A stretch of DNA of 64,000 nucleotides from Leptonemataceae bacterium. Its GTDB lineage: Bacteria; Spirochaetota; Leptospiria; Leptospirales; Leptonemataceae. Positions 23,397 to 57,553 of this stretch are shown piece by piece (the stretch's first letter is position 1; each line of letters begins with the position of its first letter). The notes beneath the pieces were generated by a model that was given only the letters and a program-made list of their open reading frames with translations, was not told the DNA's origin and searched no databases. Location: NCBI GenBank assembly GCA_965227295.1, contig OZ245742.1, positions 5,248,001 to 5,312,000 on the forward strand, in the 5' to 3' direction. The position numbers and the translations under genes are program-made.

Positions 23397-23476
23397 TCGT
23401 ATTCCCGCGCCTGGTTGAGGAAGCGCCGGCTCTTTTACGATAGACAGTGCAATTTGGCAGAGACACATTTAGCCGG

Positions 23477-39886: not shown

Positions 39887-40053
39887 AATCCAGCATCGGC
39901 CGGTCGCGCGGATCTCGCAATGAAATCACGACGGCCTTTCCGTAAGTATGTGCAGATATCCGGGATTTTTTTCGGGGCCGCCGAGCCTTTACCGGCCCCG
40001 GGCTTGCCCACGTTTGCGGGCCGGTTCCAGATTTCCCCATGTCCCCGCCAATC

Positions 40054-40620
40054 ATGCGCAGCATCACGATCGCCCTGCTCCTCTGCGTCACCGCGCTCCC
40101 CCACTGCACGCGTCGACTCGATTCGCATCGACCGGGTACGGGTTTGCTGATTGCTCAGGTGCAGGTACGAATCCTTTCCAGTACCATTGACGCGGAGTTG
40201 GACCTGGAATACCTGCTGATCGAAAAGGACAGCGGCGAGACCAGCACGGGTTATGATGACTATGACGACGGGGTCTACGTATTCAACGATGTCACCCCGG
40301 GCCGTTATCGCCTGTACCGGGGTTTCGTCCGGACGAACAACCTGCCCGGGGAAAACGTCGGCGGCGTTCGCCTGCACTTTCATTCACGGCCCGAGAACGA
40401 CTACGTGGAAGCCCTGCCCGGGACGATCATCTCTCTGGGTTCGTACGATATCACTATCGAGTACTCTATGCCCATATTTACCGTGGTCCCGAGTCACATA
40501 ACCTTCGAGGGGGGGCCTGGGCCGGAAGCCCAACGCGAGGGCCTGGATCTGTTCATCGAACGCTGGCCGGAAGGCTACTGGCCCGATCTGGCCCGCATGC
40601 AACGACGGGCAGCCTACTGA
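40054..40620 (+). CDS. Hypothetical exported protein or lipoprotein
   Basis: Signal-like N-terminus ending in Cys; beta-rich body. Confidence 0.6.
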   Translation: MRSITIALLLCVTALPHCTRRLDSHRPGTGLLIAQVQVRILSSTIDAELDLEYLLIEKDSGETSTGYDDYDDGVYVFNDVTPGRYRLYRGFVRTNNLPGENVGGVRLHFHSRPENDYVEALPGTIISLGSYDITIEYSMPIFTVVPSHITFEGGPGPEAQREGLDLFIERWPEGYWPDLARMQRRAAY

Positions 40621-41412
40621 TCAATTCAACGAGATCAAATACCGCGCGCCCTCGGTAAATTCAGAGAGACGCGGTTCGAGCCGGTTCTGGAAAAAACCGA
40701 AGCTGTCGATGCGGGCCACGCGCGGTGCGTCCGCCTTTCCTCGCAAAACGCCGTAAAGATAACCGCAGAATTGCAGATGCCGCAGACAATAAAGCGTACC
40801 GTCCTTAAGTTCTCCATACTGAAAGTTACCAGCGTAGATAAAATAATCCTGCTCGGCGATCTCCACCACGTGACCGTCCACTTCAATGAGGCGATACTGC
40901 CAGAACAAAGCGCCGCGACCGTGAAAATCCCCGGCCCGAAATGCGCCGACGTACACCGATTCCAGGAATTGATCCGCCAGGACACCCCGACCTCCGGAGC
41001 AGTCCCCCTGCAAACAGATCACCAGCGCGAACGAACGCTTGTGTCGTTCGGCACCGCCGGTACGAAATTCCCAGGCCCCCCCGTATTCGTTCCCGTCGGG
41101 GAAACCGAAACTGCCCGGCCCGGGTCGCAGGAAGCCCCGCTCAAAAAGACCGCTGATTCGGTACCCGGGGGGCAGCTCCATGGTGCCGCGCCCGTGGGCC
41201 ATGGCATTCTCCATCCCGCCGCGATAGACGATCCCGGTTTCGTGAGCCAGCTCCACCCGCTCGCTATCGTAGAAGCCGAGGCGATAGGACAAACCCTCGG
41301 AGAAACTACAGCTCCGGCATTGCCAGGCTTCGGCGCAGTGACCCAGGAACGGGGCGGCAACGAGCAACAACAATCCAGGCCACAGGGCTGGCAATCGGAA
41401 GCGGGAGGGCAT
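40621..41412 (-). CDS. Exported MORN-repeat-like protein
   Basis: Y.G.(F/M)..G..HGRG repeats; CLQGDC..G.G motif. Confidence 0.65.
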   Translation of the reverse strand: MPSRFRLPALWPGLLLLVAAPFLGHCAEAWQCRSCSFSEGLSYRLGFYDSERVELAHETGIVYRGGMENAMAHGRGTMELPPGYRISGLFERGFLRPGPGSFGFPDGNEYGGAWEFRTGGAERHKRSFALVICLQGDCSGGRGVLADQFLESVYVGAFRAGDFHGRGALFWQYRLIEVDGHVVEIAEQDYFIYAGNFQYGELKDGTLYCLRHLQFCGYLYGVLRGKADAPRVARIDSFGFFQNRLEPRLSEFTEGARYLISLN

Positions 41413-41632: not shown

Positions 41633-41833
41633 TTACTTCATTTTGTACTTTTTCTTGAAGCGATCCACGCGACCGGCGGAGTCGATGACGCGCTGCTGGC
41701 CGGTGTAGAACGGGTGGCAGGCCGAGCAGATTTCGACGTTCAGGTCCGTGCGGGTGGAACGGGTCTTGTGCTCGGCGCCGCACGCGCACTTGATGACCAC
41801 TTCGGTGTATTCGGGGTGGATGCCTGCTTTCAT
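41633..41833 (-). CDS. rpmE: 50S ribosomal protein L31 (Zn-binding type)
   Basis: [41 protein letters not shown]. Confidence 0.98.
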
Positions 41834-41961: not shown

Positions 41962-43755
41962 TTGTCCGACTCCTCCACAGGCCTCGCATCGTATCACACA
42001 CCTCCCCTGGAGGCTGGAGGGTATCGAATCGAAGTCCGGCAGAGCGTAAGTCATGGTGAAGATCAACTAGAAGAATCTTTGCTGGATGCGGAGTTTCGCG
42101 TGGCCGGCCCGCAGGACTCTCTGGCGCCGCAGGACATTCAGGCCGTATATCCACCGCGCGCGGCCCGGGGGCGATACGACTCCGTCTTTCCGCATGTGAT
42201 CTTTAGACGTTCCACCCTTCCCTGGGAACGCAGCGCCGCGCAAAACCCCGACCCGAATCGGCCTGTGCCCTGGCTCGGACTCCTGTTGTTCACCGATCAG
42301 GAAATCGAGGATCACGGTCTGTTGCCGCAAACATCTTCCCGATCGGAGTCCACCGGGCAAGACGGTGACGCCGCAACCGGGCCGGTCGCGATTCTCGATC
42401 TTCCCGCGGAATTCGCACGCATCATGCTGCCGTCGGGAGACGATCTCCCCTTTCTCGCACACGTTCGCATCCCGCCGGACGGCGGAAACCGGAGCGCGGT
42501 CGTGACCGGGAATCGTCTACCGCAGCCCGGCGCAAGGAATCGTGTCTACCTTGTGGCCTGGGAAGGACGTTATCGCTACGAGTCCGGGAATCGACTCGCG
42601 GTTTCCATCGAAGCCGGAGCGGACAGCGTGCGCCTGGTCAGTCTGAAGTACTGGGACTTCTTCTGCTCCGCGACAGCTCCCGGCGTCCACGACACCGGCG
42701 GACTCGATCACCTGCTGCGGCAGTTGAACTGCGACCCGGCGGTCCTCCAACTGCCGCCGACGGACAACGAAGAAGCGAACGCCCGAATCCGTGCGAGCTA
42801 CGTTCCGCTCAAGCATCGATTGCGCAACGGTCAGCAAACCGTTTCCTGGTATCACGGCCCTTTCGTTTGCGGCAGGAACACGGCGCCGGACGCTCTCCCT
42901 TTTCCGGCGAGCACCGCCGACGCGCTCTACTACTATCAGCCGGGCGAAGGCATGTTCGACGTCTCGTATGCGGCGGCCTGGGAGCTCGGGCGTTTGCTCG
43001 CGTTGCAGAGCAAAGACTTTGCGATCGCCCTCTACATGTTTCGCCGCGAAGCGATACAGCGCCGGCATCAGGAATCCGAACGCCGGACGCAACGGTATCC
43101 CCTGGAACTCGAAACGTCCGGCGATGCCGAACCCTCAATCCCGTCGAAAATCACGACGTGGCTCGACGATGCCGGCTTGCTCCGGAACGTCCCGTTTGCG
43201 TATCTCGTGGCAGACGAACGAATGCTTCCCGCGGAATCCATACGGTTCTTCTACATCGATTCGCAGTGGACGGCGGCATTGCAGGACGGCGCGCTCAGCG
43301 TCGGGCGCGTCAGCCGGATCGACCGGGACTTCGACCGGGACATGTACCCGGCCGACAGACCGGAGCGCGTTGTCAGCGGCGTGTTGCTGCGATCGGAGGC
43401 AGTGGCCGGCTGGCCGCATCTCCAGGTCGACGGCTTCGACTCCGCCTCGAACGCGCTGCATGTTCTCCGCCGGGAACACCTGTCCGATCATGTACTGCTT
43501 TCGCTTTTCGAAGGCGATCTCGCACGGCTCGAGGTGTATCTGAAGCCGGAGGCTCTACACTTCAGCGCTCCGGACTCCGTTCCGTTTCGCAACACCGGCG
43601 AGGCGGCCGGGGTCGTCGACGTACACGCGCTGGCCCTGCGCATGCAGGACGCATCGGGACAGGCTGGCTTCAGCGCCGCGGACTTCGCCGCGCAGTTGCT
43701 GACGAGCGGTACGAAGATATGCTTCACGCGCTTCGGAGGACAGGTCGACCAATGA
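41962..43755 (+). CDS. Uncharacterised protein A of the DUF6603-like operon (597 aa)
   Basis: Long ORF with conserved-looking motifs PPL.AG.Y, FPHV....TLPWER, VPWLGLL, YHGPF, DVSYAAAWELGRLLAL, LPAESIRFF, GVLLRS..V.GWP; TTG start uncertain. Confidence 0.8.
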   Translation: MSDSSTGLASYHTPPLEAGGYRIEVRQSVSHGEDQLEESLLDAEFRVAGPQDSLAPQDIQAVYPPRAARGRYDSVFPHVIFRRSTLPWERSAAQNPDPNRPVPWLGLLLFTDQEIEDHGLLPQTSSRSESTGQDGDAATGPVAILDLPAEFARIMLPSGDDLPFLAHVRIPPDGGNRSAVVTGNRLPQPGARNRVYLVAWEGRYRYESGNRLAVSIEAGADSVRLVSLKYWDFFCSATAPGVHDTGGLDHLLRQLNCDPAVLQLPPTDNEEANARIRASYVPLKHRLRNGQQTVSWYHGPFVCGRNTAPDALPFPASTADALYYYQPGEGMFDVSYAAAWELGRLLALQSKDFAIALYMFRREAIQRRHQESERRTQRYPLELETSGDAEPSIPSKITTWLDDAGLLRNVPFAYLVADERMLPAESIRFFYIDSQWTAALQDGALSVGRVSRIDRDFDRDMYPADRPERVVSGVLLRSEAVAGWPHLQVDGFDSASNALHVLRREHLSDHVLLSLFEGDLARLEVYLKPEALHFSAPDSVPFRNTGEAAGVVDVHALALRMQDASGQAGFSAADFAAQLLTSGTKICFTRFGGQVDQ

Positions 43756-46700
43756 GCGTGCCCACGATTTTCGTACCGATCCAACTGGACGCGCTGGTGC
43801 TCCAGCGGACGACGAGCGTGGTCGAAGCCATGGCGGACTTCAGCCGGCTTCCGTACACGGACGGCACCCGGGACTACCGGAGCGGCGTTGCGCCCATCAG
43901 CGAAGAGATTCTCTCGCAGCCCTTAGAAAGCAAGAATCTGAACTTAAAGCCCGGTATACATCTGCACTGGTCCCTGCCGGCGGCCCTGACCCGGAGCGAC
44001 GAGCACGGCGTCTTTCCGCCGGTACCGAATCGCTGGCTCATAACGCGGAAGCGTCGATCGTCCAGCGGTAGCCCGGAGACGGAACGGCAGTGGGTCGTGG
44101 AAAGCGACTTCCTGCATCCGGACGGCAAAGGCGACGACGCGGGCGGCATACCGATCCCCTTTCCGCCCGCGCCCGAACAGGGGCGGCACCGGCCCTTTCG
44201 TTATCTGGGACGCACCCTGCCTCTCGATCGCTGGAATACCCTGCAGACCCAACCGAATCGCGACGACGAGTACCTCGCCGACCGGACCCTGGAACCGGGA
44301 CCGCTGACGGCGGTCGGCTACGGCGAGCCGGCCTTCGCGGCGTTGTACTCCAATTGCCACGGCGTCCTGGGGTCGTACGATCCCGATCAGAGCGACCCCG
44401 ATCCGGCGCTGCAGTACGACGTGGTCGGCTGGTACAGCAATGCGACGCTGGATCCGGTCTACGCCTTCTTTCAAGAGCACACCGCCGTCACCGACGCGAG
44501 CGAATGGAAGACTCTCTTCGAAGAACAGTTCAACTGGACTTTCGCCGATGTGCCGCCGCGCCGGCTCGTATGCTACGCACGCCTTAACTTTACAACAACT
44601 CAAATTACGAAGAACCCCGCTCTTGACGAAGCACTGGCCGTAGCCGTGGGACACACCCGCGGCGAAGCCGTGATCGCCTACCAGGCCTCCGTCGCGGAAC
44701 GGGACGCGAAACGCCGGCAACAACTGCACGCTCGTCTTCGCGCGGCCGTCGTGGCGGATCGCGTGGAACACCGCCGCCTGGACCGGGGTGCGAAGTTCGA
44801 AGAGGCGTGTCATGCGGACGGCTTCAGCGCTACGACGGAAGGAAGCCTCTGGATGGTGAATCGGCGGCCCACCGCCGGTGTCGCGGACACGGAAACGCAA
44901 GAACCGACGCACCAGTCGACGTTGCCCGACGCCCTCGCGGATCTATTAAACGAAGCAAACGAAACACAGGAGGCTTACGATCGGGCATGGCTGGAGATCC
45001 GCGGCGCCCGGCGGCAGTTGTTTTCGGATTGGTACAAGTACATGATCACGCTGTATCCGAGCGACTACAGCCTGCGCGAAGTCGTCGATCCCAACCTCGC
45101 GCGAGAGTACATCCGGACCCGGCGCCTCGTTCCGCTCCAGCAACGCATTGCGAACACGGGAACGCTCTACGTTCAGCAGGACGACCAGGGTCTCATCACC
45201 GGCGCGCGGGCCGGCCAGCCCGGCGATGCCGGCACTTCCCTCGCCGCCGACCTGGCCGCACGTCTGAACGCCCTGATCCAGGCCGTCACGGAATTCAATC
45301 AAACGCTGGCGGCGAACAAGGCGCCGTTCCAAATCGGCTCCACGGCACGACCGCGCTACTGGAGTCCCAACGAACCCGTGGTCCTGCTGGTGGGACCGGC
45401 GACCGGCGTTCGAGAACGACCGGACGTCGCGAATACACCGTTGGCCTGCACGGTCACACCGCTATCGAATGACGCACCGGCTGGTGCGAACGACGTGAAC
45501 GCCCTCGGCGAATGCGTGGAACAAATCCACGCGGTAGATCCGGACGGCCCTGCCTTTCAGCGCTGGCAATTTCAACCGTGGCGACCGTTCTTACTTGAGT
45601 GGGAAGTCGAGGTCTTTCCTGTACGCGAGAAGAGCAACGCCGGCACGGCGGACCGCAACTATCAGTCCGACTTCATCCGCGAAAACTACACTCTCGCCGA
45701 AGACGCCGTGGACCTACGACTCAAGGAAGGCAAAGGCGCGCTCGTACGCGGCGCGAATCTCTATCGCGGCGCGAACATTCTTTCGCCGGGGGCGCACGTC
45801 GAGCTCCGGCAGAAACTCGGCGCCTATCTCTCCCGCGCGACGGCGAAGCAGAACGAGGCCGTGCGCAGCATCACCGAAGCGTACGAGAACCTGGCGAACA
45901 CGAACGGGCTCGCGCAATCTCTCGGCGGATTCAACGCAGCCCTGCTCATGCACAAACAAACGTTGCAACTTGCCGTGCAGGATCCGCTGAACTTTGCCGA
46001 ACAGAAGAAACTCGCCGACAACGTCGCATCCGCCATCGGCAGCGAGATCGACGCCGCGCCGCAACCGTTAAACGACTTTAATCCCATTCGCAGCGGCGCC
46101 TTTCAACTCCAGCGCCTGCGCCTGGTGGACGCCTTCGGGCAAACGCAAGACATCGATCTCGATCGGATCATAATCCCTCCCGAGCTGCAGTTAGCGGACG
46201 ACCCGAAGCTCATGGCATTGCCGCCGCGCCTGATGCAGGACGCGCGCCTGAATCTGCGCTGGCGCAGCGCCCGCGCGGACGCCGGCGAAATGAACGCGCA
46301 CCCCGCAACGTCACCGGTCTGCGGCTGGATGATCGGCAACCATCTCGACGAAAGCCTTTTGTTCTACGACGCGGAGGGCCTGCCCGTGGGACTGATCGAT
46401 CGCTGGAACCAGTGGCGCAACACTCCGGGCGACAGCATGGGCCAGGCTCCCGCGGCCCTGGAGAATGAACACCTCAGTCGCGTCGTGCAGTACTTACTGC
46501 GCCAGGCGCAGACGAACGAAGACTTTCTGCCTGCGTTCCGCCGGACCGTCGACGATGCCCTGGAGGCCATCGAACCGGAGGACCTTGCCGGGCATCCGGT
46601 GCCGGCGGCATTCATGGGCCGGCCTCTGGCAATCGTGCGAGCATCCGTGGAACTACAGGTCTCCGGACGACCCATGATCGATCAAAGCTGGCCGGCTTTC

Positions 46701-47546
46701 CAGGCGGACCTGACGGCGAACGACGACGGCGCGGCGCAGACCCACGGCTGGACCGGCGTGGAGTTTCCTGTCCGCCTCGGCGAGGACCGTCAGTTGGGCG
46801 ACGGCCTGGTGGGCTACTGGATCGAAGCGGATGACGGCCGGCTCGCCGACGTCTTCTACGCTCCTCAGAGCGCGGCCTCGGCCGGCACCGCCACGCAAGA
46901 ACTCATACGAACGCATACGGACGGCGAGCCGCTGAACCTGCACCTCAGCGTGAACGATCCCCGGCGCACCGTGACGATGCTCTTCGACCCGCGCGGCCGG
47001 CTGCACGCGATTCCCGGCGTGCTCCCCGCCAAATCCATCGACATTCCGCCGGACCAGTACGTGCACGCCCTGCAGCAACTCGAGGTAACGTTCTTTTCCA
47101 GCCCGATTCTCAGCGATCGGACGCAGCTCAAGATTCCGCTGGCCGACGAGCCCGGCTTTCAATGGTCCTGGGTCGAGAACCAGCGCGACGGCTGGACGGA
47201 AGTTTCCAGGACCGGCGTAATCGCAAAAAAAGATTTCTTGAAACAATTTCAGCGAGGTGCGGAAATCTGGCGCGGCCTGCTGGGAACCTGGCTCCAGGCC
47301 ATCGATGACGCCACCGCACGCATCATAGCGCGGGAACAGCGGGAGTCCGAACCGGACTTCGGCGAAGAACCAGCGGAAGTCGCAACGGCCTTCTCCGGTC
47401 AGCGGGAAGACATCGAGCGCCTGTTCGAGCAATCTTGCATCGGCCTGCCTTCCCTGGAAGCCCACTTCGCCGATGCCCGGGAACTTCGCGAAGGCTGGTT
47501 AAAACTACGCAGGAATACACAGACTACGCAGACGGAAACGCAATGA
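43752..47546 (+). CDS. Uncharacterised protein B of the DUF6603-like operon (1264 aa)
   Basis: Start MSVPTIFVPIQLDAL with ATGA overlap; motifs GIHLHWSLP, VPNRWLI, WVVESD, WRPFLLEWEV, LVDAFGQ, LPPRL, PVCGW, FPVRLG, DGLVGY; central coiled coil. Confidence 0.85.
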   Translation: MSVPTIFVPIQLDALVLQRTTSVVEAMADFSRLPYTDGTRDYRSGVAPISEEILSQPLESKNLNLKPGIHLHWSLPAALTRSDEHGVFPPVPNRWLITRKRRSSSGSPETERQWVVESDFLHPDGKGDDAGGIPIPFPPAPEQGRHRPFRYLGRTLPLDRWNTLQTQPNRDDEYLADRTLEPGPLTAVGYGEPAFAALYSNCHGVLGSYDPDQSDPDPALQYDVVGWYSNATLDPVYAFFQEHTAVTDASEWKTLFEEQFNWTFADVPPRRLVCYARLNFTTTQITKNPALDEALAVAVGHTRGEAVIAYQASVAERDAKRRQQLHARLRAAVVADRVEHRRLDRGAKFEEACHADGFSATTEGSLWMVNRRPTAGVADTETQEPTHQSTLPDALADLLNEANETQEAYDRAWLEIRGARRQLFSDWYKYMITLYPSDYSLREVVDPNLAREYIRTRRLVPLQQRIANTGTLYVQQDDQGLITGARAGQPGDAGTSLAADLAARLNALIQAVTEFNQTLAANKAPFQIGSTARPRYWSPNEPVVLLVGPATGVRERPDVANTPLACTVTPLSNDAPAGANDVNALGECVEQIHAVDPDGPAFQRWQFQPWRPFLLEWEVEVFPVREKSNAGTADRNYQSDFIRENYTLAEDAVDLRLKEGKGALVRGANLYRGANILSPGAHVELRQKLGAYLSRATAKQNEAVRSITEAYENLANTNGLAQSLGGFNAALLMHKQTLQLAVQDPLNFAEQKKLADNVASAIGSEIDAAPQPLNDFNPIRSGAFQLQRLRLVDAFGQTQDIDLDRIIIPPELQLADDPKLMALPPRLMQDARLNLRWRSARADAGEMNAHPATSPVCGWMIGNHLDESLLFYDAEGLPVGLIDRWNQWRNTPGDSMGQAPAALENEHLSRVVQYLLRQAQTNEDFLPAFRRTVDDALEAIEPEDLAGHPVPAAFMGRPLAIVRASVELQVSGRPMIDQSWPAFQADLTANDDGAAQTHGWTGVEFPVRLGEDRQLGDGLVGYWIEADDGRLADVFYAPQSAASAGTATQELIRTHTDGEPLNLHLSVNDPRRTVTMLFDPRGRLHAIPGVLPAKSIDIPPDQYVHALQQLEVTFFSSPILSDRTQLKIPLADEPGFQWSWVENQRDGWTEVSRTGVIAKKDFLKQFQRGAEIWRGLLGTWLQAIDDATARIIAREQRESEPDFGEEPAEVATAFSGQREDIERLFEQSCIGLPSLEAHFADARELREGWLKLRRNTQTTQTETQ

Positions 47547-47752
47547 ACCAAAACGTTAACCCCCACGAAAATGAAGCTAACTCGCAGAAGATTAAACTGG
47601 AACTCGAGTTAGCCGAACTCAATCAGGTCCTGGACGCCCTCGGCCGGCAGCCCTACGCCTCCGTATACATGCTGATCGAAAAGCTGCATGCCCAGGCGAA
47701 GCCGCAGGTCGTACCGCCGGCCGGTGATTCCGAAGTATCGAGGCTGTCATGA
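47543..47752 (+). CDS. Small helical protein (69 aa) resembling phage tail-fibre-adjacent proteins
   Basis: LELELAELNQVLDALGRQPYASVYMLIEKLHAQA; ATGA overlaps at both ends. Confidence 0.75.
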   Translation: MNQNVNPHENEANSQKIKLELELAELNQVLDALGRQPYASVYMLIEKLHAQAKPQVVPPAGDSEVSRLS

Positions 47753-49728
47753 GCGGCACGACCACGACGAACGATAGCGGCGTCACTCCGTATGAGCGGG
47801 TGCAACCGCTATCTTTTCAGCTCTCCGCCGACGACGGGCGTAACCTGCTGCCCCTGGACGGGCAGGCGCATCTTCTGCATCTTACCATCGAAAATCGAAG
47901 CGACGAGGAACTGACGTTTACACCGCCCGCAACCGCCGGCGCACCTGCTGCCGATCGGTATCACCTGGCGCTGCGCTTTCGACCGGGCACGTTGCATCTG
48001 ACGGACGAAACGCCGGTCGTCTTGCTCGCGGATGCCGCGGAAAACGCGAGCTGGAGCATGAGTGCTCCGGCGCGCATCTCCGACGGCACGATTACGTTTT
48101 ACTTTTTGAGCACGGTCGAGCGCAGTCTCAGCGGCCGGGATCGTCTGCGCATCAGCATGGACGGAGTGCAGGGTGAAGGCCTGGGTGGTTCTCGCGAAAC
48201 CCTCGTCGAGTTGCGCTACGAGGCGAGCCGCGGCACCGAAACGCCGGCACCGTTGAGCGGCTATCGCATCGGGCACCTCGTCCTGGCGAACCTGGCCGCC
48301 GCCCGCGCGCCGTTTCGCATAAACTTCAGCGGACCGAACTGGGTTCTCTCCGACGGCTCGACGAAACAAACGCTGAAGCTGACTTTAACGAATGTGTCCG
48401 GGCGCACGCTGAGCCTTCCGGGCAGCCGGAGTGACGCACCCGCCGCATTGGTGCTCACGTGCGGCACCGGCAACGATGCCACGGACCTGACGAAGAACGA
48501 TAAGATCGATTCCGTCACGGCGACAGGTTTTTCATCGAACAAGCTGACTCAGGGAGCCGTGCTGGAATTTCAACTGGTTCCCGCGAACGACCTCACGCTG
48601 CAACCGGGCGACGAAATCGAACTGACGATCAAGAACCTGGTCGCCAACACGAAGGCCGGACCGGCGGACCTCTTCCTTAAGTACGAAAACATTCCGGGCT
48701 TCATGGACGATACACTGGTCGCTTCCGTAATGAAAAGCCGGCTCGTCCTGCACGATAGCAACGTCAACGTCCACAGTACCCTCGACACCGGAACGCTGGC
48801 CGCGCGCAGTAATATTAGCTTTGACGGAGGGAAACTTACCAGCAAGACCTCCATCTCGCTGCAACCCGATACGAATCACAGCGGCGACGGAACCATTCGC
48901 TTTTTAAAGAACGACGGCAGTGAAGCCGTGCGCATGGCGGCGAACGGCAGGATCGGCATCGGCCAGTCGAACCCCGCCGAAACGCTACACGTGAAGGGCA
49001 ATATCCTGATTGAAGGCGGCGCTTTACGAAGCAAAGGCCGGCTCACGCTGCATCCCGACATCGATCACAAAGGAAACGACGGTGAGATTCGGTTCCTGAA
49101 AGGAAACGGCGACGAGGCCATGTGCATCGACAACAAAGGTGACGTACGCATCGGCGTCTCGGAATCGGTGGGAGCCCGGGTGAGCCTCGCCCGGGACGAC
49201 AAGAACGTCCGGCTGCTTCTCGATCCGGACCAGATCAAGTTTTTTCATAACGGCGTTAAACACTTTTCGATCTTCGCCAACCGGCTTCCCGTGCAGGACG
49301 GCGCCGGCTTTCTTACGATCGAAGACACGAGCAAAGTCGGGGGCATTACTTACAGAGAGGGCACCGTGCTTATGCAAATATCAAGCAAGGGCCCGGTGCA
49401 TATTCCCGGCGGGCTGCAGCCGGACTTCGCCTCCGACTGGATTGCGATCCAAACCAAAGATCTGAAAACGATCACTCATCCTCTCGATACGACTTCGTTG
49501 CGCACGTTCATGCTGTTCAAAACGGGCGATGACATCTACGACGCCGCCTCCTGCGTGCATTATGCCCACAAAGACCAGAATTACAGCGGCTTTAGTTTGA
49601 AAATCGCGACGAATCAGTTTCAACTGCAAGTCGCGAAACATCACGTCTTTGCGTATTATGATTCGAATGGCAATCCGAAGACTCTGAACGCCGGCTCTGT
49701 TCGTATTTTTGCGTGGAAGATCGGATGA
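47749..49728 (+). CDS. Tail-fibre/adhesin-like protein (659 aa)
   Basis: Two Ig-like N-terminal segments; shaft motif NGRIGIGQSNPAETLHVKGNI; two 63-aa repeats; distinct C-terminal tip domain. Confidence 0.7.
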   Translation: MSGTTTTNDSGVTPYERVQPLSFQLSADDGRNLLPLDGQAHLLHLTIENRSDEELTFTPPATAGAPAADRYHLALRFRPGTLHLTDETPVVLLADAAENASWSMSAPARISDGTITFYFLSTVERSLSGRDRLRISMDGVQGEGLGGSRETLVELRYEASRGTETPAPLSGYRIGHLVLANLAAARAPFRINFSGPNWVLSDGSTKQTLKLTLTNVSGRTLSLPGSRSDAPAALVLTCGTGNDATDLTKNDKIDSVTATGFSSNKLTQGAVLEFQLVPANDLTLQPGDEIELTIKNLVANTKAGPADLFLKYENIPGFMDDTLVASVMKSRLVLHDSNVNVHSTLDTGTLAARSNISFDGGKLTSKTSISLQPDTNHSGDGTIRFLKNDGSEAVRMAANGRIGIGQSNPAETLHVKGNILIEGGALRSKGRLTLHPDIDHKGNDGEIRFLKGNGDEAMCIDNKGDVRIGVSESVGARVSLARDDKNVRLLLDPDQIKFFHNGVKHFSIFANRLPVQDGAGFLTIEDTSKVGGITYREGTVLMQISSKGPVHIPGGLQPDFASDWIAIQTKDLKTITHPLDTTSLRTFMLFKTGDDIYDAASCVHYAHKDQNYSGFSLKIATNQFQLQVAKHHVFAYYDSNGNPKTLNAGSVRIFAWKIG

Positions 49729-49771
49729 GGGATGTGCGGGATAAGATCGGAGCGCGGGAGGTATAGCGTTT

Positions 49772-51337
49772 ATGTCGGCTGAAGGAAACGATCCTGATCA
49801 ATCACAAGCATCTTCCAGTGGCGCTGCCGCAGTAGCCGCGACGGACGACGGAGGCTGGCGTCCTGGAGAGTTCGGTCTGACGTTTCTGTATATGGGACAG
49901 GGGGATTGCACTCTGATCAAGTGCCCTGACGGACGAAACATTATGATCGATTGCGGCAGCTCACGGCATGACGGAGACCTGGAAGAAATCAAAGACTTGC
50001 TCCGGCAAAAGGATGCAATCGAAGCGGGACAAGACCTGGATGCCCTGATCATTACACACCCGGACAAGGATCATGTGAATCAGTTGGGGCTCTTAAATCC
50101 ATTCAAACGCCCGGGCGATGGTGGGAGGTCAGAAGAAATCCACGGTATACACGTAAAAAATATCTTCATCAGCAGCGCGAAAGCTCTGGAAGGAAACTGG
50201 TTGCCAGGCGAATACTCAAAGTATTGCAAACGATTCGCCAACAGGGCGGAGGAAGAAGAGGCAAGGGTATTTCGAGTCGTTCTCACGGAGGACGAGTGTC
50301 TTCTTCAGGAATGTGCTCCCGATACAGTCAGCGACGACGATGATGATGTTAACGATGCAGTCCCCAGGTTGGTAGACCGACGCTGCATTATCATGCATAA
50401 GAACGATGGTGACAGTGACAGTGACGACTGGTGCGTTTCCATTATCGCAGGGTCCCACGCTCCTGTAGGCGTAGACAACAATCCACTCAGTCTCGTAGCC
50501 CTGCTGGAAATCGGGGACGAAAAAATCATGATCATGGGAGATGCGACCGTAGAGGTTGGAAACTACATCATGAGCCATTTCGGAGAGGGCAGCAAAACCG
50601 ACTTGCGAAAGCTCTCATTGCTACAGGCACCGCATCATGGGAGTGAAGCATCTGCCTCAACGGAAGAATTCGTCAAATGGCTGCAACCCCAACGAGTCGC
50701 AATCAGTGCCGCCCGTTACGAGTACACGTATCACCTTCCGCGTTGGACGGTACTGAACCGGTACATTCAGTACGTCGGAGATAGAGACGACGGCCCCTGG
50801 CCCCTGGCCGCCTGGCAGGATTCGAACCAGGCTACACTTGAGACATGGCAGTCCTGGATCAAGAACGACTTGAGATTTGAAAAAATCCTCAACACTCAGC
50901 GGCAGGTGAAAGGAGTACTTTTCAATCCAACGAAATCCCCCTTCGAATTCGAAGGTGAACGAATTCAACATCAAGGCCAAATAGCAACCTATGCCCTCAG
51001 CCAGATACAATCCGGAAAAGACATTAAAATCACCGGGCTGGCGGGTACCGGATTTCCAGACTCCGAGGGAAACACGTCCTACCGGGGTGGCAATTTACAC
51101 TATTACTTCAACGGAATAAGTACCAGGCTAACACGCAGCCTCAGCAATCTTCCGGAGAATCCAACCCTCGATGACACGACCGACGGCGGGGGCGCGGCGA
51201 GTAGTAGCAGTAGCGGTGACGGCGCAGCAAGCAGCAGTAGCAGCAGCAGCAGCAGCACAACACCGGTCAGCGACGATGACGACGACGGCCCCGACAGTAG
51301 TAGCAGCAGCGGGATGCCTGACGACGGCGACGATTAA
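49772..51337 (+). CDS. ComEC/Rec2-type metallo-beta-lactamase-fold hydrolase with low-complexity acidic/Ser-rich ends
   Basis: MGQGDCTLI, MIDCG, THPDKDH, MGDA, APHHGS, AISA; no TM competence domain; lower GC than neighbours. Confidence 0.85.
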   Translation: MSAEGNDPDQSQASSSGAAAVAATDDGGWRPGEFGLTFLYMGQGDCTLIKCPDGRNIMIDCGSSRHDGDLEEIKDLLRQKDAIEAGQDLDALIITHPDKDHVNQLGLLNPFKRPGDGGRSEEIHGIHVKNIFISSAKALEGNWLPGEYSKYCKRFANRAEEEEARVFRVVLTEDECLLQECAPDTVSDDDDDVNDAVPRLVDRRCIIMHKNDGDSDSDDWCVSIIAGSHAPVGVDNNPLSLVALLEIGDEKIMIMGDATVEVGNYIMSHFGEGSKTDLRKLSLLQAPHHGSEASASTEEFVKWLQPQRVAISAARYEYTYHLPRWTVLNRYIQYVGDRDDGPWPLAAWQDSNQATLETWQSWIKNDLRFEKILNTQRQVKGVLFNPTKSPFEFEGERIQHQGQIATYALSQIQSGKDIKITGLAGTGFPDSEGNTSYRGGNLHYYFNGISTRLTRSLSNLPENPTLDDTTDGGGAASSSSSGDGAASSSSSSSSSTTPVSDDDDDGPDSSSSSGMPDDGDD

Positions 51338-51345
51338 CAATCCTC

Positions 51346-54300
51346 ATGCAACTACATGATCTAAAACGCATCGTCGAACACGCCATAAACAGCGGAGAAC
51401 TTTCCCTGGCCACGAGCGCCCTCGATTCCGACGACGTTACGACGGTCTCCGCCGGCTATCTCCCCGACGACACGCTGCACCTGACGAACGCCACACATAC
51501 ACACGATGATCGTACTCATACCGTAACGGTCCATGGAACGGGCGTCGACTATCCCTTCAACGGCCTCCAAACGACGATCGTCTTTTCTTTCATAGATGAC
51601 CAGGTGGCTTTTGTGATGACGGGAACGCAGGACGCCGCCTGGAAGTTTTCCGAAGCCCTGCCCCTGTTTCGAAAGACGTTTCTCGCAAACCTGACGTTCC
51701 GGAGCGTCGCCGTCGTCCTCCGCACGAACGACGACGATGGAGAGCCCGCAGAAGATCCCCTGAGCTTTCGAGGCGATCTGGACCTCGCTTCGCTCTCGAC
51801 CTGGACGGCCCTCTTTCCCGACGTGCTCACGCTGAACTTTTCCGGCCCCATCGGCCTGCAGGACAACGGCAGTAACTTAAACTCCCTGCAACTTAGCGCC
51901 GATCCACTCACGGACATCCACCTGGGACTCGTCAGCGCCGATCTGCACCTGGAAATCGGCGTCTGGATACGCCACAATCCGTCCTGGCAAACGTATTCGG
52001 CGGTGCCCTACATCGAACTCGAAACCGACATGATGTACACCGACCACGAGGAACGCACGCACCACCTGCCGGTTTCGGCGCGCACCTGGGGACCGGCGAC
52101 GGAAATCCGCTTCGCCGCCGACCTGGCCGATCCCATCTCCACCACCGTGGACGCGCTCCGCAATCTGATCGGCGACGACTTCGATCCCGGCAGCATCGCG
52201 CTTCCGGACGGCTTCGAACTCCCGCCGGTCCTGGAACTCGGCAACTTCTACTTCGACTTTAACGTACAGAGCCGAAAGGTTACGACCATCGGCGTGGATC
52301 TGAAGAGCGGCCTCACCTGGGAGGTCTTTGAGATCGGACGATCCGGACAGAATCTTACTCTCGAAGAAATTACGCTCTCCTTTCGATTTCGCAATCCCTT
52401 CGACAATCTAAAAACCTGGCTCGGCATCAGCGGCGACATCGGCATCGGCGACGCCGGCACCATGAGCGTCGCCCTTTACTATCCCGACTGGTCGCTACAG
52501 GGAGCGCTGAAAGATGGAACGACGCTGAAGCTCGATGAACTACTGGCGACGATCCTCGGACCGGGGTCAGCGGTACCGCCGTTGAACGTCGGCGTACTGG
52601 GCTTTGAACTGAGTTCCGGCAACTACCTGCTGGACGTGCAAGTCGACGGCGCGTGGCCGCTGGTCCCGGACAGCATCCTGAGTATGCGCGAAGTCCGTTT
52701 TTATCTGCGACAGCAGAGCGCCGCAACCGAAGTCCGCATGCACGGAGTCTTCGATGTTACCGGCGCCGACGTCTACATGACCGCCAACTATCCTTCCGGC
52801 GACGTCGGCTGGACCTTCACCGGCAGCACGGGACCGGGCCAGGCGATTTCGGTCAACGACCTCGCCGGCGATCTGCCGTACATGTATCCCGGCAGCGATG
52901 CGAGTTTGCCGGACATCGTAAGCACGCTCACGATCAAAGACCTGGCGATCGCATTCAATACACGCACGCAAGACTTTCGCTTCACCGGCGCGACAGGCTT
53001 TCGACTAAACGCGAACCATGCAGACGAGACGAGCGCAGCGGACGCGCAGGAAGTCGACTTCGCACTGAGCATCCTCCTGCAACACGGCGCCGACGGTCTA
53101 TATCGCAAAGAAATCGGCGGCGAACTATTGTTTCGCCTGAGCGATACGCAGAGCCTCGGCTTTCACGTACGCTTTGCGCAGGTCTCGCAGGACTCGCAGG
53201 AATCTTCCGGCGCAAGCGACAACCGCTTCGTCGCCGGCTATCACGACGACAACGCCGAAGTCGTTTCGATACAAAGCCTGGTCGGATTGATCGCAGGCAG
53301 CCCGCCGCCCGCTCTTGCAGGCGTGAACGTATTCCTCAAAGAAGCGTTGCTGGCCTACGACCGCCCGGCAACCGGCAACGCCGTCGCCGTCTTTCGCGCG
53401 GCCCTGGGCAGTCGACTGAATCTTTCGCAACTCCCGCTCTTCGGCGCGGTGTTGCCGCCGGACGTCAGCCTGGAACTGGACTTAGAACTAACATACGCTC
53501 AAGACAATCTAACAAACGCAGAGGCCGCCGCCTTCAACGCGCTGCTTCCCGGCAGCGTTGCGCCCCTGCCGCTGTCCACGGCGGACGGCTCCCTGGCCAT
53601 TCCAGCCGGCGCCGGCATCCACAGCCAGTTGCGCATGGGCGACGTCTTCGAGCCGGTGGACTTTGCAATACAGTTAGCCGATACCGGCGGCAGTGCGGAG
53701 AAGATCACCGCGGAACCGCTGATTCGCACAACCCGCAGCGAAGACGGCACGAACAACGACGGCGTCCACTGGAAGACGCTCCAGAAAACCTTCGGCCCCC
53801 TGTATCTGAACAAGATCGGCATGCAGTACGCGAACCGGCGCATCGCCGTGTACCTGGACGCGACGATTGCAGCGGGAGGATTGCGGCTCGGCCTGGAAGG
53901 ACTCGGCGTCGGCGTATCGGTGGCGGGACTGACTTCCGGCGCAGACATCGAGCCGCGGTTTTATCTCCAGGGCGTGGAGCTGGCCTACGAAAAAGGACCG
54001 CTGCGCATCGACGGCTATCTGCTGCACCGGCGCCTCGCAGACGCCGACGAGTACGCGGGCGCGGCGGTCATCGTTACGGAGAGCCTGGGCCTTGCGGCGC
54101 TGGCGTCGTACTACACGCCGGACTCCGGCGCGCCGTCGCTCTTCGTGTACGGCGTCCTGGAATATCCCCTGGGCGGGCCGCCGTTCTTTTTTATCGAAGG
54201 ATTGTCCGCGGGCTTCGGATACAATCGCGCGCTGCGCATGCCGGGCATCGACGACGTCGCGTCCTTTCCCCTGGTCGCCGAGGTGATCGACGGCACGGCC

Positions 54301-55896
54301 GCCGCGCCGTCGAATCGCTCCGATCTCGCCGCGAAACTCGACCAGCTCGAAGCCTACGTCCCCCGCCATACGGGACAGTATTTCTTCACGGCCGGCGTAA
54401 AGTTTAATTCGTTTAAGATCATCGACGCCTTCGCCCTGCTCGCCGTCAGCTTCGGGCAGCGCTACGAGATCGACGTCCTGGGCCTGGCCACGGCCGTAGC
54501 ACCGCCGCCCTCCCCCGATGGAGGCGACGCCCATCTTCCGCGCCTGGCAGAAGTACAGATGGCGCTGCGAGCGCGCTACGCTCCGGACGAAGGCGTGCTG
54601 GAGTTTCGCGCGCAGCTAACTACAGCTTCGTATATATTAAGCCGCGACTGTCATCTCACCGGCGGCTTCGCGTTCTACGCCTGGACCGCCGACCAGGCGA
54701 ACGGCGCCCGGGCCGGCGACTTCGTGCAGACCCTGGGCGGCTATCATCCGGCATTCGAAAAACCGGCGCACTATCCCGCCGTGCCGCGTCTCGGATTCCT
54801 CTGGCGCCTGAACGATGCACTGACACTCAAGGGAGATCTCTACTTCGCATTCTGCGCCCACGCATTGATGGCCGGCGGAAACCTGGAAGCGGTCTGGAAG
54901 AGCGGCCACCTCAAGGCGTGGTTCCTGGCCGGCGTCGATCTATTACTGAACTGGAAACCCTACTACTACAGCGGCGGAGCTCATGTCAGCATCGGCGCCA
55001 CATATCAATTCAAGGTCTTCGGCAGTCGCAAGAAGGTCACGTTCACGACCGGCGCGCACCTGGAACTGTGGGGACCGGACTTTGCCGGCAGGCTCCATGT
55101 CGATTACTACGTCGTATCGTTTACGATTCGCTTCGGCGCGCCGAAGCGCCGGCCGCCGGCCGTCGACTGGCACGAGTTCCGCGCATCTTTTCTACCAGGG
55201 CAGTATCTCAGCGTGGCAGCCCGGGCCGGTCTGATCGGGCAGGATGCCGCATCAACCGGGGACGCCGTGCAACTCGGAACGCTCAATCCCACGGAATGCA
55301 CCCTGGTCATCGATTCGGCGATTCCGACGAAAAAAGTATTCTTCAACCAGCAACCCCAGGACCTCGAACCGCCGGACGATTTCGCCGTTCGTCCGGTCCG
55401 CATTCCAGCCGATCAACTGAACGTAAGCCAGCACATCAGCGTTACGCGTTCCGGACAAACGATCGGCATGTTCGAATGCACGCCGATCCGGAAGGACATG
55501 CCCGCCGCGCTGTGGGGGGAACCGCTGCGAGATAATTCCCCGGACGTAAACGACGGACGCTTCGTCAGCAATCTCGTAACGGGGCTCATCATTCAGCCGC
55601 GCTCCACGGCGCCCGGCGGCGGCCTGGCCGGCTATGAAACGACCCTCCCGCGCCAAGAAGGCGGCGTCTTTGCGTATGCGCCGTTCCGGAGCCCGCACGC
55701 CGACGACATGATCGAATCTCCATGCAACACCATCGCCGAGGACATCATGCAGGGGGACGCGGCGACCGCCGGCACGACCGTCCACCGGCGTAACGAAGTC
55801 CTGAGCGCCCTGGGTCTATCAGCAAACGACATCGATCTGGATGCAAGCGTCGCGGAAATGTTCTTTGTCCCGCCGCGGATCGTAGCGTCGCCGTAG
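51346..55896 (+). CDS. Large beta-rich protein with a C-terminal DUF6603-like domain (1516 aa)
   Basis: KTFGPL, PLGGPPFFFIEGLSAGFGYNR, LSRDCHLTGGFAF, GDFVQTLGGYHPAF..P.HYP.VPRLG.W, GDLYFA, ELWGP, VSFTI.FG, PAALWG; family recalled from motifs, not searched. Confidence 0.75.
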   Translation: MQLHDLKRIVEHAINSGELSLATSALDSDDVTTVSAGYLPDDTLHLTNATHTHDDRTHTVTVHGTGVDYPFNGLQTTIVFSFIDDQVAFVMTGTQDAAWKFSEALPLFRKTFLANLTFRSVAVVLRTNDDDGEPAEDPLSFRGDLDLASLSTWTALFPDVLTLNFSGPIGLQDNGSNLNSLQLSADPLTDIHLGLVSADLHLEIGVWIRHNPSWQTYSAVPYIELETDMMYTDHEERTHHLPVSARTWGPATEIRFAADLADPISTTVDALRNLIGDDFDPGSIALPDGFELPPVLELGNFYFDFNVQSRKVTTIGVDLKSGLTWEVFEIGRSGQNLTLEEITLSFRFRNPFDNLKTWLGISGDIGIGDAGTMSVALYYPDWSLQGALKDGTTLKLDELLATILGPGSAVPPLNVGVLGFELSSGNYLLDVQVDGAWPLVPDSILSMREVRFYLRQQSAATEVRMHGVFDVTGADVYMTANYPSGDVGWTFTGSTGPGQAISVNDLAGDLPYMYPGSDASLPDIVSTLTIKDLAIAFNTRTQDFRFTGATGFRLNANHADETSAADAQEVDFALSILLQHGADGLYRKEIGGELLFRLSDTQSLGFHVRFAQVSQDSQESSGASDNRFVAGYHDDNAEVVSIQSLVGLIAGSPPPALAGVNVFLKEALLAYDRPATGNAVAVFRAALGSRLNLSQLPLFGAVLPPDVSLELDLELTYAQDNLTNAEAAAFNALLPGSVAPLPLSTADGSLAIPAGAGIHSQLRMGDVFEPVDFAIQLADTGGSAEKITAEPLIRTTRSEDGTNNDGVHWKTLQKTFGPLYLNKIGMQYANRRIAVYLDATIAAGGLRLGLEGLGVGVSVAGLTSGADIEPRFYLQGVELAYEKGPLRIDGYLLHRRLADADEYAGAAVIVTESLGLAALASYYTPDSGAPSLFVYGVLEYPLGGPPFFFIEGLSAGFGYNRALRMPGIDDVASFPLVAEVIDGTAAAPSNRSDLAAKLDQLEAYVPRHTGQYFFTAGVKFNSFKIIDAFALLAVSFGQRYEIDVLGLATAVAPPPSPDGGDAHLPRLAEVQMALRARYAPDEGVLEFRAQLTTASYILSRDCHLTGGFAFYAWTADQANGARAGDFVQTLGGYHPAFEKPAHYPAVPRLGFLWRLNDALTLKGDLYFAFCAHALMAGGNLEAVWKSGHLKAWFLAGVDLLLNWKPYYYSGGAHVSIGATYQFKVFGSRKKVTFTTGAHLELWGPDFAGRLHVDYYVVSFTIRFGAPKRRPPAVDWHEFRASFLPGQYLSVAARAGLIGQDAASTGDAVQLGTLNPTECTLVIDSAIPTKKVFFNQQPQDLEPPDDFAVRPVRIPADQLNVSQHISVTRSGQTIGMFECTPIRKDMPAALWGEPLRDNSPDVNDGRFVSNLVTGLIIQPRSTAPGGGLAGYETTLPRQEGGVFAYAPFRSPHADDMIESPCNTIAEDIMQGDAATAGTTVHRRNEVLSALGLSANDIDLDASVAEMFFVPPRIVASP

Positions 55897-56092: not shown

Positions 56093-57553
56093 TTACGACG
56101 ACGGCACGTTCATGGACGCCAGAAAATCCACGTTCGTCTTGGTGTTCTTCATGCGATCGAGCAACAACTCCATGGCTTCTGTCGTAGACATGGGCGAGAG
56201 CGCCTTGCGAAGTACGAAGACCTTGGGCAGCACGTCGTCTTCGAGCAGCAGCTCTTCTTTCCGCGTGCCGCTTTTGTTGAGATCGATGGCCGGATAGATG
56301 CGCTTGTCCGCGAGGCGACGATCCAGGTGGATCTCCATGTTACCGGTGCCCTTGAACTCTTCGAAGATGACCTCGTCCATGCGCGAGCCCGTGTCGATGA
56401 GCGCCGTCGCCATGATCGTAAGCGAACCGCCGTGTTCAATGTTCCGCGCCGCGCCGAAGAAACGCTTCGGTTTGTGCAACGCGTTCGAGTCCACACCACC
56501 GGAGAGGATCTTGCCCGACGTCGGAATGACCTGGTTGTAAGCGCGCGCGAGACGCGTGATCGAGTCGAGCAGGATGACCACGTCCCGGCCGTGCTCCACC
56601 TGGCGCTTGGCCTTTTCGATGACCATCTCGGCGACCTGGACGTGACGCGAGGCCGGCTCATCGAACGTGGACGAGATGACCTCGCCCTTCACGTGCCGCG
56701 CCATGTCGGTGACCTCCTCCGGACGTTCGTCGATGAGCAGGACCATCAACTGTACTTCCGGATGGTTCGCCGTAATGGCGTTCGCAATGCTCTGCATGAG
56801 GATCGTTTTACCGGTCCGCGGCGGAGCGACGATGAGGCCGCGCTGGCCTTTGCCGATGGGCGTCAACAGATCGATGATGCGCGTATCCATCTGGCCGGGA
56901 TTCCACTCCATGACCAGGCGTTCGTTCGGATACAGCGGCGTGAGGTTGTCGAAGAGAATGCGGCGCTGGGCGTCGTCCGGTGACTCACCGTTGACCGTAT
57001 CCACGCGCAACATGGCGAAGAAGCGCTCGCTTTCTTTCGGCGGGCGGATTTGTCCGGTGATGGTATCGCCGGTGCGCAGGCCGAAGAGACGAATCTGCGA
57101 CGGGGAAACGTAGATATCGTCCGGGCCCGGCAGGTAGTTATAGTCCGCGCTGCGCAGAAAGCCGTAACCTTCCGAAAGTTTCTCCATGGTACCGGCGGCG
57201 TGCACGATGCCGTTCCGCTCGGCCTGTTTCTGGAGAATGGTGAAGATGAGGTTCTGCTTCTTCTGGCCGGCGACATTCTCGCCGCTCATTTCCTCGGCGA
57301 TCTTCGACAGCTCGGCAATGGGCATGGCCTTCAGCAACGTGAGGTCGATGGGATCCGGAGTCTCGCCGGTATACGGCGGCGGCGTCGGCTCCTTGTTGCT
57401 TTCGCCTTTGTCCCGGGAACCCCGGCGTCCGCGACGACCGCGACCATTACTATTGCTGTTACCGCCGCCGCTTTCCGGCTCGGCCTCCGCAGCGACGTTG
57501 CCGTCCGCTTCTTCCGCGTTGGCGTTTTTGTTTCGGGTCCTCCGAACTGCCAT
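56093..57553 (-). CDS. rho: Transcription termination factor Rho
   Basis: [66 protein letters not shown]. Confidence 0.99.

Follow-up and report, generated by a model that had tools for sequence, protein, structure and literature searches.

The locus described here raises the question of what is made by six tightly packed genes whose products carry no leader sequence and lie mostly outside the curated protein families. The genes occupy positions 41962–55896 of the window, by which we mean the whole stretch of 64,000 nucleotides that was analysed (Leptonemataceae bacterium, contig OZ245742.1, positions 5,248,001 to 5,312,000). They are best explained as a single complete and intact representative of a cassette that is widespread, moves horizontally and encodes leaderless proteins acting together. 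As to function, we tentatively favour, with somewhat less than even confidence, a new kind of fibre-targeted, non-contractile, polymorphic toxin-delivery complex. Our working definition of such a cassette asks for the genes A, B and D, a gene for a fibre and one for a variable enzyme, all in one orientation and spread over no more than about 15 kb; the window holds all five together with a small gene, s69:

A, 41962..43755, + strand: core subunit of 597 amino acids (aa), TTG start
B, 43752..47546, + strand: core subunit, 1264 aa counted from the ATG
s69, 47543..47752, + strand: small helical accessory protein of 69 aa between B and F
F, 47749..49728, + strand: putative fibre-like receptor-binding protein, 659 aa
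E, 49772..51337, + strand: exchangeable enzyme of 521 aa, here a ComEC-type metallo-beta-lactamase (MBL)-fold hydrolase
D, 51346..55896, + strand: DUF6603 protein, 1516 aa

The original prediction for this locus, made by a model from the letters alone, had described six co-oriented open reading frames (ORFs) of these lengths, and direct reading of the sequence confirmed them together with ATGA stop/start overlaps at 43752, 47543 and 47749 and gaps of 43 and 8 base pairs (bp). The open frame of B extends upstream of its ATG, and its homologues start at that ATG. All six proteins are acidic. They had been said to lack an obvious signal peptide or transmembrane segment, which was upheld by a crude hydropathy test: no transmembrane helix was found, the top Kyte-Doolittle mean over 19 residues across the six proteins being 1.43, and no signal-peptide-like N-terminus was seen in any of them by a similarly crude test made without a dedicated predictor. 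A scan of the operon for promoters and terminators gave 3 and 12 candidates versus 3.0 and 14.1 in shuffled sequence, that is, no excess. Only D and E match curated families. The gene that had been called DUF6603-like encodes a full member of DUF6603 (PF20248; residues 812–1307, E-value 2.3e-137, 459.1 bits with a cut-off of 27), and the MBL-fold call for E is borne out by Lactamase_B in Pfam (E-value 1.5e-10, 41.8 bits, cut-off 22.7). The fibre call found agreement in weak matches of F to tail-fibre families in PHROGs (E-values 8e-6 and 4e-5) and in clear phage-fibre domains among its relatives. A, B and s69 have no match in Pfam, NCBIfam, PHROGs or PADLOC, and the same four databases place none of the six proteins in a sheath, tube, baseplate, VgrG, capsid, Rhs or Tc family.

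In order to see how the genes recur, relatives of B were collected from a one-genome-per-species collection; they fall in 535 genomic stretches, and the best 80 loci were fetched and analysed, with taxa as named in their sequence records. These include Cyanobacteria, Acidobacteriota, Chloroflexota, Actinomycetota, Bacteroidota, Verrucomicrobiota, Planctomycetota, Proteobacteria, Desulfobacterota and KSB1, and among the hosts are the bloom former Microcystis as well as Paenibacillus, Nonomuraea, Micromonospora, Herpetosiphon and Lewinella. A first count over the 80 loci with our own ORF calls and phmmer gave B in 77, F in 64, D in 57 and A in 34, the misses of B being artefacts of antisense ORFs; in a recount by tblastn B is present in 80/80 by construction. 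Where 9 kb or more of sequence follows B, which is so in 57 loci, tblastn finds D in 54 and F in 55, the exceptions being L051, where a cassette stretched by inserts extends past the end of the locus, L060 and L083. Of the 57 loci that have D, 36 also have A; the other 21 are cut by contig or flank ends, and no locus lacks A where 2.5 kb of sequence is free for it. The same gene set is thus found in 54–55 of 57 assessable loci from many phyla, which puts the arrangement far beyond chance. Counted from the side of D in five genomes, B and A lie within about 12 kb of 8 of 9 D genes (one genome, G083, was found only through D). The ninth, in Nonomuraea, stands alone by the A and B profiles, and its genome (G033) has three D genes.

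The cyclic order B-(s)-F-E-D-A, where s is the small gene, is kept across at least nine phyla. The usual linear order is B-F-E-D-A, with D-A-B-F in L015, L069 and L080, A-B-D-F in L070 and L073, and A-B-F-E-D in L028 and in the window, whose gene order is a cyclic permutation of the usual one. The original prediction had proposed as its check whether A, B and the DUF6603 gene keep company across phyla while the fibre and enzyme genes beside them vary, and the outcome is clearly positive. Its placement of the cluster outside extracellular contractile injection systems (eCIS), type VI secretion systems (T6SS), tailocins and Tc toxins also holds, both at the level of sequence and in the gene content of the 80 loci. 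The idea of a three-component structural core was right in that A, B and D recur, and has to be widened to five recurrent components and an optional small one, F being equally constant.

No further conserved gene stands beside the cassette in the 80 loci, and no ATPase, secretion, lysis or immunity gene was found there; the recurring neighbours belong to generic paralogous families (histidine kinases, WD40, extracytoplasmic function (ECF)-type sigma factors, RTX and ABC proteins). Long ECF-type sigma-factor-like genes lie upstream of the cassettes of L013, L017, L025, L054 and L057, which span cyanobacteria, Acidobacteriota and Chloroflexota; two that were scanned (462–532 aa) contain Sigma70_r2/r4, and these genes may be regulators. 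In L083 (Candidatus Electrothrix) an orphan B, with no F, D or A within 10 kb, is followed after less than 100 bp by a pair of candidate defence genes, PDC-M02A/PDC-M02B (PADLOC E-values 8.5e-58 and 3.1e-111). Among 150 randomly drawn flanking ORFs, 12 match PADLOC at E-values of 1e-10 or lower, a count for which there is no genomic baseline.

The cassette is patchily distributed: D turned up in 2 of the 121 cyanobacterial genomes sampled, the centre genome itself being one of the two. In Herpetosiphon aurantiacus (G032, L041) a pair of complete cassettes, each with B, D and A, is arranged in tandem at a distance of about 29 kb (C1:2418238-2460892). A tblastn search of 50,697 phage records found neither B nor the core of D. 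Distant relatives of B (24–29% identity) are found on 10 large plasmids of Streptomyces, Embleya, Kitasatospora and Paenibacillus. One of these, the Paenibacillus polymyxa plasmid p-YT9A (L095), has the order D-A-B-x-x, its genes being labelled in RefSeq 'DUF6603 domain-containing protein' and then 'hypothetical protein'. Between 9 and 14 kb upstream of this DUF6603 gene lie genes for a 'phage baseplate assembly protein V' of about 1030 aa, a pentapeptide-repeat protein, a GH-E nuclease fragment and an ankyrin-repeat protein, possibly an unrelated toxin locus. Full-text literature searches for 'DUF6603' and 'PF20248' found no paper.

The most variable component is the enzyme. In the window, the nearest solved chains to E are the MBL domains of ComEC (9ic4, E-value 1.4e-8; 30bt, 1.9e-7), and the metal motifs HPDKDH (HxHxDH) and distal PHHGS are intact and align with the ComEC motifs of 9ic4. 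The matches to NCBIfam models all lie below cut-off: ComEC_Rec2 (TIGR00361) at 6.9e-19 and 67.4 bits (cut-off 190.05), 6A-MBL at 4.7e-15 and 55.6 bits (cut-off 220) and Avs1a at 3.6e-12 and 45.7 bits (cut-off 420). PADLOC returns LmuA (2.3e-19), RTasMBL (4.7e-18) and PDC-M48B (8.1e-18), and the PHROG 'tail protein' family phrog_7043 has the MBL domain in common with E (4.1e-18). The N-terminus of E is disordered, and its C-terminal tail is acidic and rich in serine. E is probably a metal-dependent nuclease or phosphodiesterase.

The slot between F and D holds very different proteins in other loci. When 63 slot proteins were scanned against Pfam, 17 were assigned to Lactamase_B, five to Anthrax_toxA (the EF/CyaA-type cyclase domain), two to Lipase_3, one to LCAT/PGAP1, two to Exo_endo_phos (EEP nuclease/phosphatase) and one to Peptidase_S8 (subtilase); six are small mobile-type genes (Uma2, HSDR_N, RRXRR-HNH), one is a fibre fragment and 28 have no family. 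The characterised cyclase domains of the EF/CyaA/ExoY type are toxins that need eukaryotic cofactors for their activation. BLAST sorts 56 slot proteins into 19 clusters without a common adaptor segment, and it finds no docking or packaging motif across the enzyme families (the two cross-label matches are both to unlabelled members of the same cluster); nor was a common terminal motif seen by eye. The slot changes between loci whose B proteins are closely similar: at 90% identity of B, L014 and L017 have an MBL protein and a class-3 lipase; at 88%, L013 and L056 a protein of no family and a class-3 lipase; at 84%, L074 and L077 an MBL protein and an LCAT-cluster hydrolase; and at 80%, L021 and L064 an LCAT-type hydrolase and an MBL protein. 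Locus pairs with B at least 55% identical share the enzyme cluster in only 15 of 61 cases. These comparisons show that the gene for E has, by its sequence relationships, been exchanged freely and on a short evolutionary scale.

Genes resembling Uma2/HSDR_N restriction endonucleases are inserted between F and D in L006, L022, L031 and L068 (Microcystis and other cyanobacteria), an RRXRR-HNH gene lies at the same place in L076, and a 519-aa ORF interrupts the B gene of L016; mobile genes seem to be drawn to the variable region. Basic clusters of the KKRK type, resembling eukaryotic nuclear localisation signals, occur at the N-termini of slot proteins of L011, L038, L057, L071 and L075 and at the C-termini of the x768 family. 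Suggestive at first sight, they are not enriched by a crude count (9 of 52 versus 38 of 211 control ORFs, Fisher p = 1.0). The starts of slot ORFs were taken as the longest possible, and N-terminal extensions may be artefacts.

F is divided into a conserved N-terminal region of about 340 aa, which the alignment shows to be common to its relatives, and a variable C-terminal half with 'GIG..P...LHV' fibre repeats. Among 44 F proteins scanned, Laminin_G_3 was found in 26, Collar in 10, Peptidase_S74 in four, Gp10_C in three and B_lectin in one, in mosaic combinations; twelve, including that of the window, have no Pfam domain. Against the sequences in PDB the window protein has a single marginal match (8ol4, E-value 0.15). 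The family comparison shows F to be a modular fibre in which a constant N-terminal region would serve as anchor and lectin- or phage-type domains, swapped between loci, as putative binding tips.

D has a variable N-terminal part of about 460 aa and a conserved core, residues 460–1516, and its family is large, comprising 3696 representative clusters at 50% identity (E-values of 1e-3 or lower). The AlphaFold2 (AF2) model of the core, built from an alignment of 66 sequences, has a predicted local distance difference test (pLDDT) value of 83.8 and a predicted template modelling score (pTM) of 0.69. It features about 27 long antiparallel strands over the DUF6603 part (residues ~808–1263), a helical insert and a helical C-terminus. 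The strands alternate between a hydrophobic face (mean Kyte-Doolittle value 1.75) and a polar face (mean -0.87). In Foldseek, 10 PDB chains were matched at E-values of 1e-3 or lower (LptD, Deinococcus SlpA, ApoB100, and teneurin and Rhs shells), followed by the TcB-TcC cocoon at 1.4e-3; the TM-scores of the listed chains are all 0.16 or lower. In two VIA structure searches the top 50 matches of each were barrels, not shells. The alignments with real barrels have root-mean-square deviations (rmsd) of about 9–18 Å in nearly every case, the exception being a short one with TamA (125 residues, 5.3 Å), so the likeness is one of topology and general shape, not of detail. Five viral models in BFVD match at E-values of 1e-3 or lower with TM-scores of at most 0.12, and none exceeds 0.13; the D profile has one chance match among PDB sequences, a de novo designed protein at E-value 0.5. 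The DUF6603 core of D is thus predicted to form a giant amphipathic, porin-like, beta-barrel-like sheet or meander.

B is the most conserved protein of the cassette, with about 35–42% identity across phyla. Its relatives, 223 proteins at E-values of 1e-3 or lower among 8000 scored candidates, are all named 'hypothetical'; 15 members have no Pfam match even at E-values up to 1, the B profile has no match among PDB sequences, and ESM Atlas look-ups of the window protein and one metagenomic homologue led only to 'hypothetical protein' clusters. The A family, of about 570–890 aa, has no Pfam model. Its predicted structure combines Ig-like beta-sandwiches with a long helical hairpin; profile and sequence searches of PDB sequences with A gave no matches, and its top Foldseek matches, T5 tail-tip and phage neck chains at an E-value of about 0.02, are not significant. 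By hhalign, A and B are not related to each other (probability 0.4%). The small protein s69 has the conserved core I.l.LtleE.N.iLeaLG..PY..V..LI.K, and a hidden Markov model finds its family in 23 of the 80 related loci as well as in the window, always directly after B. A complex prediction of s69 with residues 1–340 of F and 900–1264 of B gave a score of 0.01 (mark 0.32), which in a run without controls weighs neither way. Inserts of extracellular type occur in the core proteins of some relatives: PG_binding_1 in B of two, LamG in one A, and fn3 (together with DUF4135) in one D.

The genes on either side bear on how the cassette came to the window:

rpmE (ribosomal protein L31), 41633..41833, - strand: left boundary of the cassette, assigned by translation
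rho (transcription termination factor), 56093..57553, - strand: right boundary, with Pfam Rho_RNA_bind, Rho_N and ATP-synt_ab

Both flanks consist of ordinary chromosomal genes: on the left, along the minus strand, rpmE is joined by an operon of the MoxR-type AAA/transglutaminase kind, and on the right rho stands with genes for an M23/LysM peptidase and a bactofilin. A search of 30 relatives, two of them same-genus genomes about 93% complete, did not find B in any, and in those two no cassette protein has a tblastn match. Their rho orthologues are 84% identical over the full length and 88.5% over residues 69–486, and both keep the order M23-rho-(2.6 kb, two unrelated genes)-rpmE-...-MoxR-transglutaminase-BamB. 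This synteny without the cassette means that the 13.9-kb cassette is an insertion or a replacement between rpmE and rho. Direct adjacency of rho and rpmE in the relatives was considered and rejected: rpmE is not within 1.5 kb of rho, the two being about 2.6 kb apart. The interval there encodes an M48-like peptidase and a multi-pass membrane protein. Base composition is uneven along the cassette. The guanine-plus-cytosine content (GC) of A, B and D is 0.62–0.64 (0.73–0.76 at third codon positions, GC3) versus 0.53–0.55 for s69, the C-terminal half of F and E (region 47543–51337); the two halves of F have values of 0.614 and 0.549, and E has a GC of 0.533 and a GC3 of 0.577. The contrast points to separate histories for the core and for the module of fibre tip and enzyme. 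Judged from these comparisons, the cassette is intact and horizontally acquired.

A second cassette lies in the same genome about 3 Mb away (G000:C1:~2,200,000-2,220,200; L003, L005), in the order B-F-F-x-D-A and with neither s69 nor an MBL gene:

B2, 1214 aa: 31–41% identity to B in two segments
two fibres, 705 aa and 1359 aa: both with Phage Tail Collar domains
x, 768 aa: no known family
D2, 1690 aa: 31% identity to D, DUF6603 at 385.8 bits
A2, 665 aa: 27% identity to A, E-value 3e-51

A2 is followed by a 300-aa protein without an assigned family and then by an Lcl_C-domain protein. Elsewhere in the window, two minus-strand ORFs of 207 and 263 aa between rpmE and the MoxR operon (39760–41412) have no Pfam match, nor does tblastn find a counterpart of either in the syntenic region of the same-genus pair of genomes. 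Positions 23447–26569 and 27180–30200 encode two neighbouring, paralogous hybrid histidine kinases of the 7TMR-DISM type (1040 and 1006 aa), which contain receiver domains.

How might these proteins act together? In the toxin-delivery complex that we tentatively favour, a non-contractile scaffold of A, B and D would form in the cytoplasm, and trimers of F would dock on it through their conserved N-terminal region. The complex would be released or exposed, for example by lysis or in vesicles, and F would attach to a glycan or a protein on the surface of another cell. D, with its barrel-like core, would be the obvious candidate for a container or membrane conduit that carries E to the target, the cargo in the window being E as a ComEC-like metal-dependent nuclease or phosphodiesterase. 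We infer all three of the steps on which this depends, namely that there is one physical complex, that it leaves the cell and that it delivers or displays the enzyme. The lectin, collar and chaperone domains of F and the PG-binding, LamG and fn3 inserts of the core point to action outside the cytoplasm, the repertoire of EF/CyaA-type cyclases, lipases and nucleases looks like a toxin arsenal, and it is these two features together with the barrel-like D that favour a delivery complex. A bolder version, which we hold to be rather doubtful, would make the cassette a hitherto unknown class of ATPase-free, non-contractile delivery machines of both monoderm and diderm bacteria from many phyla: the fibre would select the target, the single-chain giant barrel of D would insert into the target membrane as a self-contained translocon or would open like a container, and the enzyme would pass, some enzymes, such as the EF/CyaA-type cyclases, being aimed at eukaryotic grazers.

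Several points weigh against delivery. No signal peptide and no secretion, lysis or holin gene was found in or beside the cassette, and E lacks the following immunity gene that anti-bacterial toxins usually have. The barrel reading comes from one AF2 model with rmsd values to real barrels of about 9–18 Å, so the sheet may be unclosed, and the fold models cover A and D of the three core subunits. Finally, E of the window scores best against MBL models from anti-phage systems (LmuA in PADLOC), and the 12 PADLOC matches in 150 flanking ORFs, although lacking a baseline, may point the same way.

These last observations lead to the main rival, an anti-phage abortive-infection defence in which A, B, D and F would form a cytoplasmic sensor of a phage component, the fibre-like protein perhaps mimicking or binding phage structural proteins, and would unleash the exchangeable effector on the host cell itself. 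Swapping of effectors without an immunity gene, as seen in the slot, is typical of defence systems; E matches the MBL effector models of Lamassu, DRT, PDC-M48 and Avs1, all the proteins are leaderless, and the patchy distribution, horizontal transfer and several copies in some genomes would suit such a system, as would the flanking PADLOC matches, which include BrxB and the PDC-M02 pair. We nevertheless regard this reading as unlikely. A, B, s69, F and D match none of the PADLOC families, the cassette has no NTPase, nucleic-acid-sensing or signalling domain, and the lectin, collar and S74-chaperone domains of F, like the PG_binding_1, LamG and fn3 inserts of the core, are typical of extracellular proteins. 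In the window the cassette stands between rpmE and rho and not in a defence island, and to our knowledge cyclases of the EF/CyaA type, which some cassettes carry, have no role in defence.

The extracellular character of these domains would also fit a surface adhesion or envelope-processing apparatus of the producer, with the fibre displayed and the enzyme acting locally on surface polymers, for use in recognition of prey or substrate, in gliding or in cell-cell contact of filamentous or predatory bacteria. The closest analogue of F is found in the MAT surface fibres of Bdellovibrio (PMC10769870), in keeping with the weak match to 8ol4; some B proteins contain PG_binding_1, many hosts are filamentous, gliding or predatory (Herpetosiphon, Lewinella, cyanobacteria, actinomycetes), and the tail-protein family phrog_7043 has the same MBL domain as E. 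No subunit, however, has a signal peptide, an anchor or a sortase or lipobox signal, whereas the MATs all carry a signal peptide, the cyclase-toxin, lipase and nuclease cargo suits killing better, and the cassette is absent from close relatives of the same lifestyle, so that we consider an adhesion apparatus quite improbable. Least credible, with only a slight chance of being right, is a domesticated or degenerate phage tail-tip or baseplate module, a prophage remnant in which A, B and D would be baseplate or tail-tip proteins diverged to an extreme degree and E a tail-associated depolymerase. The phage-fibre domains of F, the MBL domain that E has in common with the PHROG tail-protein family and the non-significant matches of A to T5 tail-tip and neck chains speak for it. 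Against them stand the 50,697 phage records in which tblastn finds neither B nor D, the lack of any PHROG match for A, B and D, the BFVD search, in which no model reaches a TM-score above 0.13 with D, and the neighbourhoods, where no capsid, portal, terminase, tube, tape-measure or integrase gene is conserved.

If the cassette is a delivery device, it would represent a new mechanism of inter-organism antagonism with exchangeable plug-in fibres and enzymes; if it is a defence system instead, its sensor would be unprecedented. A soluble protein with a porin-like barrel would be a structural oddity in its own right, and either way the cassette is a well-defined five-gene target for cryo-electron microscopy and genetics in culturable hosts.

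Among known systems, the Tc (ABC) toxins have in common with the cassette leaderless, giant, multi-subunit proteins, a very large all-beta container or conduit (in the cassette a putative one), an exchangeable payload and a patchy horizontal spread; Foldseek lists TcdB1-TccC2, Rhs and teneurin for D at E-values of 1.7e-4 to 2.5e-3, but with TM-scores of 0.08 or lower. It differs from them in having, by Pfam and NCBIfam, no Rhs/YD repeats or TcA-like protein, in a payload that is a separate gene and not a C-terminal hypervariable region, and in its phage-type fibre. With eCIS, tailocins and T6SS it shares phage-type fibres with swappable tips, leaderless structural proteins, adjacent variable effector genes and enrichment in large genomes of filamentous or complex bacteria, whereas sheath, tube, spike, baseplate wedge, tape-measure and AAA ATPase are absent at the sequence level and the genes number only five to six. 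The MAT fibres and phage receptor-binding proteins resemble F in their conserved N-domain, repeat stalk and mosaic tips (S74, collar, lectin), as outlined in PMC10769870, according to which all 21 Bdellovibrio MATs carry a signal peptide; the conserved, beta-rich N-domain of this superfamily measures about 130 aa. F has no signal peptide, the MATs are not known to be linked to A, B and D genes, and the similarity in sequence is marginal (8ol4).

The outer-membrane barrels with which D was compared are Occ/OprD porins, maltoporin, MtrB, LptD, ushers and TonB-dependent receptors, together with Tom40/VDAC. D differs from all of these in lacking a signal peptide and sequence similarity to them, its predicted barrel is only part of a soluble protein of 1500 aa, and the cassette also occurs in records of Actinomycetota, Bacillota and Chloroflexota. 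Nonomuraea, Micromonospora, Paenibacillus and Herpetosiphon are monoderm. The defence systems Lamassu (LmuA), Avs1a, DRT (reverse transcriptase-MBL) and PDC-M48 are alike in their MBL enzyme and in exchanging effectors without an immunity gene, and unlike in that the cassette has no SMC, STAND, reverse transcriptase or other NTPase partner and E scores far below the NCBIfam cut-offs. Among solved structures E comes closest to the MBL nuclease domain of ComEC, with which its HPDxDH and HHGS motifs align, whereas E is a stand-alone, soluble protein without a membrane channel or OB domain. Set beside each of these, the system is outside every characterised class that could be tested.

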